This document shows positions 3,093 through 23,062 of a stretch of DNA of 64,000 nt, one piece after another. Made by a program: the position numbers and the translations under genes. The stretch is from NCBI GenBank assembly GCA_937889535.1, contig CALBZW010000011.1, forward strand, positions 140,513 through 204,512. The letters run 5' to 3'. Below the pieces are notes generated by a model. The model saw only the letters and a list, made by a program, of their open reading frames with translations. It was not told the origin of the DNA and made no database searches. How positions within the stretch are numbered: position 1 is the stretch's first letter; every line of letters begins with the position of its first letter. Source of the DNA: an uncultured Candidatus Saccharibacteria bacterium. Lineage in GTDB: Bacteria; Patescibacteriota; Saccharimonadia; Saccharimonadales; Saccharimonadaceae.

Positions 3093-3122
3093 ATTTTCCT
3101 CCGAAATTATTTTGGTATGGGC

Positions 3123-3151
3123 TTGACGAATGTTTTGTGTATTGTTAAAAT
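3123..3151 (+). promoter_or_regulatory. sigma70-type promoter for the short antisense RNA (TTGACG-17-TGtTAAAAT)
   Basis: TTGACG at 3123-3128, a 17-nt spacer, and an extended -10 with TAAAAT at 3146-3151. No plus-strand gene lies downstream before the terminator. Confidence 0.5.
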
Positions 3152-3157
3152 GGGACT

Positions 3158-3209
3158 ATAAGTTTTTATTTGTTGTTCTTAGTCTTGCGGCTGAGAACAA
3201 CTTTTATTT
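3158..3209 (+). ncRNA. candidate ~50-nt cis-antisense RNA overlapping the 3' end of sORF A
   Basis: Predicted TSS is about 7 nt after the -10. Hairpin GTTGTTCT (3172-3179) / AGAACAAC (3194-3201) is followed by TTTTATTT. Confidence 0.4.
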
Positions 3210-3255
3210 CGGAGACTCCAGATTGGAGCTCGAAAGTCAGTTTGACTCTACTCAT
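3166..3255 (-). CDS. small ORF A, 29 aa (MSRVKLTFELQSGVSEIKVVLSRKTKNNK)
   Basis: GGAAGGGGTGAGT lies immediately 5' of ATG 3255; stop TAA at 3166-3168. Paralogous to the sORF at 22719..22802. Below the 60-aa cutoff of the track. Confidence 0.45.
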   Translation of the reverse strand: MSRVKLTFELQSGVSEIKVVLSRKTKNNK

Positions 3256-3409
3256 ACTCACCCCTTCCACATTTTAATTTACTAAAGTTTTATCGACCTT
3301 AGTTCGTCTTGCCCATGCGTTCATGCTAGCAGAACAAAAAATAAAAGTAAACCCCTAGGGTTGATAAGTTGCAAAAATATGTTTTCGTATAGTTTTTCCA
3401 GGGTTATAG

Positions 3410-3438
3410 TTGACATTTTTGATAAAGTGTGCTATAAT
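3410..3438 (+). promoter_or_regulatory. consensus promoter TTGACA-17-TGCTATAAT
   Basis: TTGACA at 3410-3415 and TATAAT at 3433-3438, with an extended TG. Confidence 0.6.
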
Positions 3439-3484
3439 GGAGAGTAGAGGGCTGGGGGATTCCCCTGGTACATATTAAAAGGAG

Positions 3485-4045
3485 GTGGTTGTCTTGAAGA
3501 GGCAATCGAAGTTGTTATATGAATCGGCAAATATTCTCTGCTGGTTTCGGACTATTGTAAGCGTAGTGTTAGCTCTGATTTCTCGGGCGAGCGTGGCGTT
3601 TGCAGTGTTGTTCGCGTTGGCGTTCATTAGTGACGCCCTGGATGGTTGGTGTTATCGGAAATTTGCGAAAGAGCGACCATACCAGCACTGGTTTAATCGA
3701 CTACCAATCACAATGGATCCGATTGCGGATTTCTTCCTTGTAGGAGGAGGGATCATCCATGTTATGGATGATAAGCCCAGGGGCTTAGTTTGTTTTATCG
3801 GAATGGCAATCGTGATGCTACTTTGGAGTGTAGTCGGCGGGCGAACAACTGGCAAATTGTACACTGTATTGATGACTGGACTGACGTATTACTGGTTTGT
3901 CATGATGGTAATAACAGTGGTTCTGGTCTGGCGTCATGATGGCGGTCCATGCTGGCCAATCGGCTTTATTGTAACTATTGTTAGTTTTTATGCCATCTGG
4001 TTCAAAACGAGAGTGAAGAACCGGACAATCCGTAGAAGGGGGTAA
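3485..4045 (+). CDS. multi-pass membrane protein, distant CDP-alcohol phosphatidyltransferase-like motif
   Basis: Hydrophobic throughout; SDALDGW...DPIAD resembles the DG..AR...D...D motif. AGGAGG at 3479-3484 favours the in-frame TTG at 3494 over the GTG at 3485. Confidence 0.55.
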   Translation: MVVLKRQSKLLYESANILCWFRTIVSVVLALISRASVAFAVLFALAFISDALDGWCYRKFAKERPYQHWFNRLPITMDPIADFFLVGGGIIHVMDDKPRGLVCFIGMAIVMLLWSVVGGRTTGKLYTVLMTGLTYYWFVMMVITVVLVWRHDGGPCWPIGFIVTIVSFYAIWFKTRVKNRTIRRRG

Positions 4046-21616: not shown

Positions 21617-21693
21617 TGGTAGTACCAGGTGGGATCGAACCACCGACCTCAGGCTTATGAGTCCTGCGCTCTAACCAGCTGAGCTATGGTACC
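21617..21693 (-). tRNA. tRNA with anticodon CAT (Met, or Ile2 if lysidine-modified), CCA encoded
   Basis: Hand-folded cloverleaf: GGTACCA acceptor (G1-U72), GCTC/GAGC D stem, loop CTCATAA, GGTTCGATCC T arm. There is an A31-G39 mismatch. Confidence 0.8.
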
Positions 21694-21735
21694 ACACGTT
21701 GTTATTATAACATACTTTTTTGAAATTGAGAGAGA

Positions 21736-22278
21736 TTATTGATTTTGCTGCCATTTATAGTACTCGATAAGATATTCCCAGCAGCCTTCTTTGTCGGTGA
21801 TTCCCTCGTAGTGATTTTGGATGCGGCGGATAATTTCGTCGCGGTCAATCCATTCCACCTCCGAAACTTCCTCGGTCTGGAGCTTGAGAGTTAAAGGGTC
21901 GAGATCTTTATGAACAATATAGTATTCATTAAAATGATTATTAATTACGTTGCCTTTTAGATTGGTCGAGGTAGTTGCGCCGATGAAAGTAATATCGTTT
22001 TTGTCGAGTTTAATATCAAGTTCTTCTTCGCATTCGCGCATTACAGCCTGAAAACCGAATTCGCCAGCCAAAACATGGCCGCCAGCACTAACGTCCCACA
22101 TACCCGGCCAAAGTTTTTTGGAATCGCTACGTTTCTGTAGGAGAACCTGATTTTTAGAGTTAATGATGAAAATTGCGACAGCCTTGTGCCAGTGGCCGGA
22201 TTGGTGACACTCATCGCGAGTGGCGACCTTACCAGTATAGCGGCCCTTAGTGTCGAGAATATCAAAAGTTTCTTGCAT
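21736..22278 (-). CDS. NUDIX hydrolase
   Basis: Nudix box GGHVLAGEFGFQAVMRECEEELDI. ATG lies 6 nt after TGTTATAAT. Confidence 0.8.
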   Translation of the reverse strand: MQETFDILDTKGRYTGKVATRDECHQSGHWHKAVAIFIINSKNQVLLQKRSDSKKLWPGMWDVSAGGHVLAGEFGFQAVMRECEEELDIKLDKNDITFIGATTSTNLKGNVINNHFNEYYIVHKDLDPLTLKLQTEEVSEVEWIDRDEIIRRIQNHYEGITDKEGCWEYLIEYYKWQQNQ

Positions 22279-22302
22279 GTGATAATTATAACACGGTAAG
22301 GC

Positions 22303-22656
22303 TTGAGACTATTCGGGTTGGCTTTTGTCCGTAGTGGAAACGTCAATCTTGTCTATGGTCAGGGTCGAGTTGTTGGTGAATATGGTTATGGATGGTCACG
22401 CACTAATGGAGGAAAGAGGAAGGAGACCACCGGCGCCACCACCATAGTACAGTTACCATTGGCTTTTGTCCGTAGTGGGTATGTCGCCCTCAACAATGGT
22501 ACTACTAGCTATGTCGGCTACTATGGCTATGGCTGGTCTAGCATTTCCAAGGCATCTACCGCAAGTGCGTATAATTTGTACTTTGGCATTACAAATGCTC
22601 CTCTTACGTCAGATAGCGGCAATCGTTATCATGGTTTCCCCCTCCGCTGCCTCTAA
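22303..22656 (+). CDS. truncated Fibrobacter-succinogenes-major-paralogous (FISUMP/DUF1566-like) domain ORF; possibly a gene remnant
   Basis: Two LAFVRSG...YGYGWS units and a GFPLRC end typical of the domain's C-terminus. No signal peptide and no convincing SD or -10; TTG start. Confidence 0.4.
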   Translation: MRLFGLAFVRSGNVNLVYGQGRVVGEYGYGWSRTNGGKRKETTGATTIVQLPLAFVRSGYVALNNGTTSYVGYYGYGWSSISKASTASAYNLYFGITNAPLTSDSGNRYHGFPLRCL

Positions 22657-22672
22657 CTAGGGGCGACAAAAA

Positions 22673-22701
22673 TTGCCTTATTTATAAAACTTTGATAGAA
22701 T
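22673..22701 (+). promoter_or_regulatory. promoter TTGCCT-17-TGaTAGAAT for the antisense RNA
   Basis: TTGCCT at 22673-22678, a 17-nt spacer, and TAGAAT at 22696-22701 with an extended TG. Confidence 0.5.
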
Positions 22702-22707
22702 AGGAAT

Positions 22708-22750
22708 TACAAGTATGGTTACTTTCGTTTTCGGACGAAAGTAATTTTTA
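22708..22750 (+). ncRNA. candidate ~45-nt cis-antisense RNA overlapping the 3' end of sORF B
   Basis: 9-bp hairpin TTACTTTCG / CGAAAGTAA (22719-22744) followed by TTTTTA. Confidence 0.4.
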
Positions 22751-22802
22751 TCTTCAGGTCAGCATCGAGCTTAATAAAGCCGCACTTAATCCGTACTTTC
22801 AT
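22719..22802 (-). CDS. small ORF B, 27 aa (MKVRIKCGFIKLDADLKIKITFVRKRK)
   Basis: GAGAAAGGAGTGCAGT lies 5' of ATG 22802; stop TAA at 22719-22721. Paralog of sORF A (shared R-x-K..F.......IK[VI].[LF].RK.K). Confidence 0.45.
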   Translation of the reverse strand: MKVRIKCGFIKLDADLKIKITFVRKRK

Positions 22803-22941
22803 ACTGCACTCCTTTCTCCCACCTATGACCAAGTTAAGCTACATGTCGCCCCTAGGATTCAGACTAGCATAAAATTGAAAATTTTAGCAAGCATAAGACT
22901 AGTAGACAGGAAAGTTCTCCCTGCTACCTTCCCTTTAAAAT

Positions 22942-22975
22942 AAAAACAAGAGAGCAATCTCTCTTGTTTTTATTT
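22942..22975. terminator. bidirectional intrinsic terminator
   Basis: AAAAACAAGAGAG-caat-CTCTCTTGTTTTT. Confidence 0.8.
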
Positions 22976-23062
22976 TGGCGGAAGGGACAGGATTCGAACC
23001 TGCGAGGCTATTAACCTGCTGGTTTTCAAGACCAGTGCCATCAACCACTCGGCCACCCTTCC
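22976..23062 (-). tRNA. tRNA-Ser (anticodon TGA), long variable arm, CCA encoded
   Basis: Hand-folded. Acceptor GGAAGGG/CCCTTCC, loop CTTGAAA. TGCTATAAT lies 7 nt upstream of +1. Confidence 0.9.

Follow-up and report, generated by a model that had tools for sequence, protein, structure and literature searches.

The window analysed here, 64,000 nucleotides of an uncultured Candidatus Saccharibacteria bacterium (GenBank assembly GCA_937889535.1, contig CALBZW010000011.1), holds two copies of a compact module, copy A and copy B, in which a small open reading frame (ORF) led by its own promoter and Shine-Dalgarno (SD) sequence is opposed by a convergent gene for a predicted antisense RNA of ~50 nt. 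Copy A lies in the 392-bp spacer 3093-3484. An earlier interpretation made from the letters of the window alone (the sequence-only reading) had put this spacer after the HAD gene; it is in fact upstream of that gene, which runs from 3092 to 2292 on the minus strand. Each part of copy A which that reading had listed was nonetheless found where it had been placed. Promoter calls on both strands assume a sigma-70-type consensus, which is plausible for this host because a perfect 12/12 promoter stands at 3410-3438. This plus-strand promoter (TTGACA-17-TGnTATAAT) precedes a CDP-alcohol phosphatidyltransferase gene (3485-4045), its block is kept in the related loci L014, L045, L041, L002 and L003, and the antisense promoters of the cassettes resemble the house consensus seen there. 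In the following, P1 is the helix between the arms of the bounding inverted repeat and P2 a small hairpin in the 5' untranslated region (UTR). The parts of copy A are as follows.

3346-3351, minus strand: sense promoter -35, TTTACT, within the block GTTTACTT kept in the family alignment (A3)
3323-3331, minus strand: sense extended -10, TGcTAGCAT (TAGCAT 3328-3323, TG 3331-3330), consensus 8/12 plus TG
3303-3316, minus strand: P1 5' arm ATGGGCAAGACGAA, the extreme 5' end of the predicted mRNA, co-varying with the 3' arm in the family
3281-3303, minus strand: P2, with conserved loop GGUCGAU(A), from alignment A3 and folding
3268-3261, minus strand: SD sequence GGAAGGGG, 5 nt ahead of the ATG
3166-3255, minus strand: small ORF, ATG 3255 to TAA 3166-3168, 29 codons plus TAA, product MSRVKLTFELQSGVSEIKVVLSRKTKNNK
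3142-3162, minus strand: part of the 3'UTR with predicted pairing to the SD and AUG (anti-translation initiation region, anti-TIR), on DNA shared with the antisense -10 and +1
3117-3130, minus strand: P1 3' arm TTCGTCAAGCCCAT (mRNA sense), holding the antisense -35
3123-3151, plus strand: antisense promoter TTGACG (3123-3128), 17 nt, TGtTAAAAT (TAAAAT 3146-3151, TG 3143-3144), consensus 10/12 plus TG
3158-3209, plus strand: predicted antisense RNA of ~52 nt, from sequence and folding, with a 14-nt tail, a 13-bp hairpin (3172-3201) and a U-tract (3202-3209)

The arms 3117-3130 and 3303-3316 are complementary at 12/14 positions. The predicted minus-strand start (~3316) is the first base of the outer arm, as the sequence-only reading had proposed. 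Its dimensions needed adjustment. The ~200-bp unit is bounded by an inverted repeat, as described, but it reaches 3351 once its own sense promoter is included; the hairpin given as 3172-3179/3194-3201 is terminator-like and is followed by TTTTATTT, but it has 13 pairs, not 8; and the antisense RNA, put at ~50 nt and at the 3' third of the ORF, is right in size but overlaps roughly half of the ORF, its final ~14 codons.

The same reading had pointed to a second unit of the same layout at 22657-22855. This is copy B, which a family model built without it finds at E=7.6e-12 (leave-one-out), and which consists of these parts.

22861-22890, minus strand: sense promoter TTGCTA, 18 nt, TGcTAGTCT; the same promoter type is seen in L009 and L006
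22844-22855, minus strand: P1 5' arm CTAGGGGCGACA, from the inverted repeat and the fold
22817-22809, minus strand: SD sequence AGAAAGGAG
22719-22802, minus strand: small ORF, 27 codons plus TAA, product MKVRIKCGFIKLDADLKIKITFVRKRK
22657-22668, minus strand: P1 3' arm TGTCGCCCCTAG, from the inverted repeat and the fold
22673-22701, plus strand: antisense promoter TTGCCT, 17 nt, TGaTAGAAT
22708-22754, plus strand: predicted antisense RNA of ~47 nt, from sequence and folding, with a hairpin (22717-22746) and a U-tract (22747-22754)

The arms of copy B (22657-22668 and 22844-22855) are complementary at 12/12 positions. The two peptides share 33% identity over 24 residues (BLASTP, E=0.016), and a two-sequence DNA alignment of the copies is by itself near chance level; the homology of copies A and B follows from the family model and not from pairwise DNA alignment. 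A model built without the subfamily of copy A finds copy A at E=2.2e-23.

Family membership and conservation of the parts

Relatives were sought in 80 HAD loci taken from related species, a genome sample that is biased to that locus. A tblastn search placed the copy A peptide upstream of HAD in L001, a mouse-gut metagenome-assembled genome that is 99% identical to the window at HAD, and in L023 and L015. With a peptide hidden Markov model and iterated nhmmer, cassettes were found in 19/80 HAD loci (one as the 3' half only) besides the two in the window, and a DNA-pattern scan of metagenomes gave 27 matches, three of them true and representing one new peptide type on three contigs. The distinct members total 20. 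Presence is concentrated near the window: 16 of the 26 closest HAD loci carry the cassette, against 3 of the next 54. The same DNA pattern had no match in viral contigs, the surroundings of yebC in three related genomes (6 loci with ~60 kb of unique sequence) held no cassette, and a weak match in L112 proved to be a generic strong promoter only. So far, the family has been seen in a clade of animal-gut Saccharibacteria only.

The sequence-only reading had allowed for an undescribed small-gene module, and the database searches bear this out. Searching 1.84 billion representatives with a profile built from the extended ORFs of both window copies returned the L015 peptide and two repetitive artefacts only, and in a collection of 15 billion proteins some of the family peptides appear, as unnamed singletons only. 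The peptides had no match in Pfam at E up to 10, in NCBIfam or among PDB sequences; Rfam gave tRNAs only at gathering score, its sub-threshold matches being chance-level.

Across the family the module spans ~235-270 bp and has two promoters, the sense one being modest and followed by a leader of ~60 nt with a strong SD. In sense order, alignment A3 conserves the -35 block; TGCTAGnAT as the -10 block; a G-rich 5' arm; the hairpin loop GGTCGAT(A); TAGCAGTTTAAAA; GAAAGG and then ATG; an ORF ending AAAATAAAAGTTACTCTC, loop, GAGAGTAAC; then TATAgTTCCATTCTAACA; and then GTCAAGCC. Preservation in relatives, which the sequence-only reading had named as a check, thus holds for the ORF, the arm pairing and the antisense promoter and terminator among the 20 modules. 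Some loci carry additional sequence. A further inverted repeat, ACCCGCTGCGCAC / GTGCGCAGTGGGT, encloses the cassette of L011 (~2560-2960), and a near-identical GTGCGCAGCGGGT stands beside the L006 cassette (~20-70); together these may be another repeated element. In L006 (~250-340) an ~80-nt insert with a terminator-like hairpin (GCAAGCATTTTTATTTT...) sits in the cassette 5'UTR between the P1 5' arm and the SD.

Within the module, identity is highest in the ORF, at 0.76-0.98, and drops to background in most flanks, at 0.45-0.6. The ATG and SD occupy the same alignment column in 20/20 members, with GAAAGG 7-10 nt ahead of the ATG, and the ORF has 23-35 codons in 19 of them; that of L016, having lost its stop, is 59 codons long. 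In five independent close pairs the proportions of synonymous and nonsynonymous differences (pS and pN) were 0.349 and 0.057 (pN/pS 0.16, Fisher p=6e-12), with 12/8/32 differences at codon positions 1/2/3. Judged by this substitution pattern, the SD-led ORF of the sequence-only reading is a real gene under purifying selection.

Comparison also supports the convergent antisense gene. Its extended -10 (TGn) is present in 20/20 members, with a spacer of 16-17 nt and a consensus match of 8-11/12, the mean of 9.45 exceeding that of the sense promoter (7.9). Its RNA is predicted to begin at an A (+1) that lies 7-17 nt past the 3' end of the ORF. With a length of ~48-60 nt and perfect complementarity to the last ~12-15 codons, this RNA would end in a hairpin of 28-46 nt (12-15 bp) and, in most members, a U-tract. 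Read on the antisense strand, the hairpins of the family hold 40 G.U pairs in all, but read on the sense strand only 3, and their folding energies sum to -352.7 and -265.6 kcal/mol, respectively; this asymmetry indicates that selection keeps the stem on the antisense RNA. In an 11-bp in-register stem, 97% of cells are paired and 9/11 pairs have changed on both sides, with a covariation score of 0.70 against 0.29 in shuffles (0/500) and 34-50% pairing in slid controls, figures that come from a register fitted to the Val/Ile codon and hence favouring pairing, whereas the strand asymmetry is independent of register. The antisense RNAs of copies A and B also fold better than shuffles (z = -5.9 and -4.3). 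A ~50-nt antisense RNA with its own promoter and terminator is thus supported by the sequence signals in every part.

On the opposite strand, the mRNA is predicted to fold back on itself. The sequence-only reading had suggested that its 5' end could pair with its 3' region, and P1 forms in the minimum-energy fold of every member although the sequences differ. Its 5' arm begins within -1 to +2 of the predicted start in 19/20 members, the sole exception, winB, being attributed to a mis-chosen promoter. On a MAFFT alignment, RNAalifold recovered the terminator hairpin as the only structure, P1 being missed because its arms are misaligned, and for this reason P1 and the SD lock described below were assessed by permuting duplexes between members (own versus cross) rather than by column-wise covariation. 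P1 duplexes with their own partners sum to -664.7 kcal/mol against a permuted mean of -501.8 (standard deviation (sd) 19.9; 0/20000), and with one representative per subfamily to -414.8 against -295.0 (sd 17.3). P1 has no strand asymmetry (G.U 44 versus 37), so the G.U test alone cannot assign it to RNA over DNA.

A second long-distance interaction is predicted to lock the translation start. Positions -14 to +3 relative to the AUG have a mean pairing probability of 0.74, of which 0.70 is with the 3'UTR; in the predicted fold, GAAAGG pairs with UUCC beside the antisense -10, and the AUG with UAUA at the antisense +1. The SD-lock duplexes, too, favour their own partners (-286.3 versus -205.6, sd 12.4; 0/20000), and both predicted sense RNAs, that of copy A and that of copy B, are more stably folded than shuffled sequences (z = -6.9 and -4.65). 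The model that emerges is a panhandle closed by P1 and by SD/AUG pairing, and with both in place the full-length mRNA should be translationally closed. The same DNA would serve twice, as the -35 and -10 of the antisense promoter and as the 3' pairing partner of the mRNA 5' end and SD. P2 is present in most members as a covarying stem (UUGG/CCAA, CUGG/CCAG or CUAAGG/CUUUAG) under the conserved loop GGUCGAU(A); by eye, no complement to this loop was found in the antisense RNA or the mRNA.

These results bear on two simpler accounts of the module. If only the ~50-nt plus-strand RNA were functional, as a trans-acting small RNA gene with the opposite ORF and mRNA folds as by-products, it would be natural that no other signals of the unit are as canonical as the antisense promoter and terminator and that hairpin selection is specific to that strand. 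We give this account almost no credence, given that codons 1-15, which the antisense RNA does not reach, still show a pN/pS well below 1 (Fisher p=3e-7), that the SD, ATG and sense promoter are conserved, and that P1 and the SD lock involve the sense RNA only and both co-vary.

The other account, also raised by the sequence-only reading, is a mobile repeat resembling a miniature inverted-repeat transposable element (MITE), which merely carries promoters and in which the ORF is incidental. Bacterial MITEs of the Correia, RUP and BOX type are intergenic units of ~150-300 bp that can bring promoters and fold in RNA, and the module shares with them its intergenic position, inverted-repeat bounds, promoters, RNA folding, size (~200-270 bp), polymorphic presence and occurrence in both orientations. 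However, the termini are not conserved between copies but co-vary, which is the behaviour of an RNA pairing and not of a transposase site, and the 5' arm coincides with the transcription start. Furthermore, the few copies that there are have diverged, their peptides being only ~35% identical, no direct repeat or target-site duplication is visible at copy B, and the unit holds a selected peptide (pN/pS 0.16) and a dedicated antisense gene, all of which makes a MITE very improbable.

Genomic context and decay of the module

In many species, the spacer that holds the cassette lies between divergent tyrS and HAD genes. The small ORF points to HAD in 7 HAD loci as well as in the window, and in 6 loci to an ORF of 403-409 aa, which is tyrS in both cases tested (L017 and L012); on the metagenome contigs it points to a GH25 gene or to an unknown gene. 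Thus, cassettes occur in both orientations, and a co-directional gene (HAD, tyrS or GH25) follows 20-120 nt downstream in 17/20 members. At the cassette-free orthologous sites L014, L045 and L041 the spacer measures 109-177 nt, compared with 392 nt in the window, and L045 and L041 carry their own HAD promoter. As the minus strand between cassette A and HAD has no promoter-like site of 9/12 or better, the HAD/TIM genes are probably transcribed from the sense promoter of copy A.

Such an arrangement would also suit a portable promoter-leader that tunes the downstream gene, with the small ORF as an upstream ORF and the antisense promoter as a source of transcriptional interference. Besides the promoterless interval in the window, the HAD promoters of the empty sites L045 and L041 and the frequency of a co-directional gene within ~120 nt, the remnants L004 and L049, which keep only the cassette promoter and P1 arms before HAD, speak for it. 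Against it, the genes downstream have no functional relation to one another, copy B has no gene to serve, as it points at the end of a convergent ORF, and tyrS has its own TATAAT just before the ATG, even in L018, where the 5' half of the cassette is missing. Nor is there a terminator/antiterminator alternative between the small ORF and the next gene, and selection on the amino-acid sequence would be needless for a pure leader. On balance, we find the promoter-leader quite improbable. Two specific leader types were also rejected. A leader-peptide attenuator or T-box leader does not fit, there being no terminator/antiterminator, unrelated downstream genes (HAD/PMM-like, tyrS, GH25 or none) and no T-box match in Rfam; a tyrosine-codon leader for tyrS likewise had no Rfam match, and the tyrS-facing peptides contain at most one Tyr. 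As a separate observation, in L018, L019, L021, L036, L016 and L025 the TATAAT lies 6-7 nt before the tyrS ATG and is not accompanied by an SD, a spacing which suggests that the tyrS mRNA of these loci is leaderless.

Incomplete modules are found in several forms. L004 and L049 retain the sense promoter and both P1 arms but not the core, in L018 the antisense gene survives with no more than the 3' half of the ORF, and one metagenome variant is without the 3' arm. In addition, subfamilies diverge fast at the same locus. By these signs in the sequences, the module is accessory, with a decaying distribution.

Copy B lies between tRNA-Ser and tRNA-Met, beside yebC. The tRNA-Met/tRNA-Ser interval (window 21617-23062) varies among related species: in the window it contains a NUDIX gene, a 117-aa ORF and cassette B, in L110 a GmrSD-type gene, in L111 a 211-aa ORF, and in L108 nothing was called. 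It looks like an integration hot spot. The 117-aa ORF (22303-22656, plus strand, TTG start) abuts the cassette B arm and has no match in Pfam; its ending, ...YHGFPLRCL, is presumably like the C-terminal motif of Fib_succ_major-type domains, and a domain of this type is matched by Pfam in an L089 protein adjoining another cassette. The ORF may be a gene fragment. Also in this neighbourhood, genes of L110 (15996-20702) for integrase, holin, CW_7 and portal mark a prophage, or what is left of one, close to the variable tRNA interval, and L108 and L109 (1-2751), from a related Saccharibacteria contig, carry Cas9, Cas1 and Cas2 genes ~7 kb from yebC.

A proposed type I-like module and its known counterparts

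We believe that the module works like a type I toxin-antitoxin locus with a non-canonical peptide, a reading to which we assign a probability of about 0.5. Its architecture is well supported by the sequence comparisons, and the ORF, the antisense RNA and the fold-back mRNA, on which the sequence-only reading had based its comparison with type I loci, are each backed by 20 modules; transcripts, direction of regulation and toxicity are what we infer from them. Type I loci are described in T1TAdb by SD/anti-SD pairing, 5'-3' long-distance interactions and stem-loops (PMC8594479). The module has a small gene (usually <60 aa in type I loci) with its own ribosome-binding site, a predicted antisense RNA complementary to the mRNA of that gene and, in the folding models, both SD sequestration and a 5'-3' interaction of the kind listed in those descriptors.

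On this basis, we propose the following model. The antisense RNA, abundant owing to its strong promoter, would pair with the 3' half of the ORF and lead to cleavage or decay of the mRNA. The full-length mRNA would be inert through P1 and the SD lock unless its 3' part were trimmed or not yet made. The peptide would therefore be produced only once the antisense RNA was depleted, and would then harm or arrest the cell. At copy A, the sense transcript would read on into the HAD/TIM genes, which are without a promoter of their own.

The peptide itself is atypical for a type I toxin. The sequence-only reading had described basic and amphipathic rather than hydrophobic peptides, and the absence of hydrophobicity extends to the whole family, but basicity is a property of the window peptides (+5 and +8) and not of the family, in which net charge ranges from -4 to +10. 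The hydrophobic moment is much higher at beta-strand than at helix periodicity. AlphaFold2 models of the extended forms, built from single sequences without an alignment and therefore to be taken with caution for such short peptides, show one long beta-hairpin (predicted local distance difference test score 89 for copy A and 81 for copy B). The hairpin model had no Foldseek match at E 0.001 or better. We thus predict, from modelling, that the peptide is an amphipathic beta-hairpin.

Several findings weigh against a toxin-antitoxin function. The family peptides are hydrophilic, with a grand average of hydropathy of -0.8 to +0.41; their best 19-residue Kyte-Doolittle window is at most 1.15, compared with 1.35-2.5 in five classical type I toxins; by hydropathy none has a transmembrane helix, the mark of a membrane-type type I toxin; and the spread of net charge leaves no single physicochemical route to toxicity obvious. 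The conserved K-I/V-K-V/I-T-L motif is coded by the complement of the antisense U-tract and stem, a double constraint by which peptide conservation may be partly RNA-driven. There is no sense-strand terminator, as the hairpin has its U-tract on the other strand only, and so the mRNA 3' end is undefined. Only two copies, divergent from each other, are present in 64 kb, with none in the ~60 kb of the three related genomes, and the co-directional gene downstream of 17/20 members would fit a leader or promoter role as well.

Alternatively, the peptide might be a non-toxic small protein under antisense control, a regulator or partner of a larger protein, RNA or ribosome kept at a low or conditional level. 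Hydrophilic peptides, some of them neutral or acidic and none with a transmembrane segment, an ORF under purifying selection like that of any functional protein, and a module that by its position appears often to be co-transcribed with housekeeping genes all agree with this possibility, and in Bacillus, cytosolic small proteins that have antisense RNAs are on record (PMC7834092). What makes us regard it as rather unlikely is the patchy presence among close relatives (16/26 of the closest HAD loci and 3/54 of the next), the decayed copies, including one with the antisense gene only, the fast divergence of subfamilies at the same locus and a triple repression, in which the antisense RNA has the stronger promoter, the mRNA ends are closed on each other and the SD is sequestered, as is typical where a gene has to be kept off.

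If the type I-like reading holds, the family may be the first of its type in Saccharibacteria (Patescibacteria, the candidate phyla radiation), with a hydrophilic amphipathic beta-hairpin toxin of 23-35 residues and a ~50-nt antisense RNA whose promoter DNA encodes the anti-SD; we put this forward tentatively, the odds being somewhat against it. Saccharibacteria are ultra-small episymbionts with reduced genomes, and the presence in them of a module under RNA control, whether selfish or responsive to stress, would be relevant to how reduced genomes keep or lose accessory DNA. According to a 2025 paper (PMC12390103), type I systems were known from no phyla other than Proteobacteria, Firmicutes and Tenericutes, and a full-text literature search found no paper joining 'type I toxin-antitoxin' and 'Saccharibacteria'. 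Known type I toxins are hydrophobic helices and two cytosolic nucleases (PMC8309996). A toxic peptide of the present kind, which might act as an oligomeric beta-structured pore or bind nucleic acid or the ribosome, would widen the class past both. Even if it is non-toxic, the family is a well-defined and previously unannotated one of small proteins, all of whose regulatory parts can be read from the sequence, and the module is compact and directly testable.

Among the described systems, par of pAD1 (Fst/RNA II) resembles the module in placing a convergent toxin mRNA and antitoxin RNA in one small unit with a terminator hairpin central to the overlap. The par unit is ~400 bp, its RNAs share one bidirectional terminator and interact via 5' direct repeats, and Fst is a membrane peptide. 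In contrast, the hairpin of the present module is predicted to terminate the antisense RNA only, with G.U pairs and a U-tract on one strand. In the bsrG/SR4 and txpA/RatA loci of Bacillus subtilis, as in the module, transcription is convergent and the complementarity of the antisense RNA is to the mRNA 3' end; its effect would be expected via RNase III-type decay and the structure around the SD. The SR4 and RatA antitoxins, however, are ~180-220 nt long with overlaps of 75-120 nt, and the toxins are hydrophobic with a transmembrane helix, whereas the RNA here is ~50 nt and ends inside the ORF. To our knowledge, no 5'-3' closing helix of this kind has been described for these loci.

Such closure is instead a feature of aapA1/IsoA1 of Helicobacter pylori, whose primary mRNA is kept inert by long-distance pairing of its 5' and 3' parts and becomes active once its 3' end is trimmed. 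By analogy, the primary mRNA of the module may be inert in the same way, and both systems encode a peptide of ~30 aa with a cationic tail. IsoA1 overlaps the 5'UTR of aapA1. AapA1 forms an amphipathic alpha-helical membrane segment (PMC8309996). In the present module, the antisense RNA overlaps the 3' part of the ORF, the peptide has no alpha-helical membrane segment, and the host belongs to another phylum.

Further parallels are seen with hok/Sok, the type I system of plasmid R1 and its chromosomal homologues. In both, the full-length mRNA of a small ORF is shut by a helix between its very 5' end and its 3' region, which for the module is a prediction, and the translation start is sequestered; both have a short antisense RNA from the stronger promoter, and both occur as multi-copy, patchy loci, some of them decayed. 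The module has no sequence similarity to hok/Sok in the Rfam, Pfam and NCBIfam searches, and its parts are disposed differently. Sok pairs with the 5' leader, at the mok start region, hok requires the overlapping leader ORF mok, and Hok is a hydrophobic membrane peptide of ~50 aa; here, the antisense RNA would pair with the 3' end of the ORF, and the peptide is hydrophilic. Since the module combines a type I architecture with a peptide that is not of the membrane type, we liken it to the type I systems rather than file it in any of their described families.

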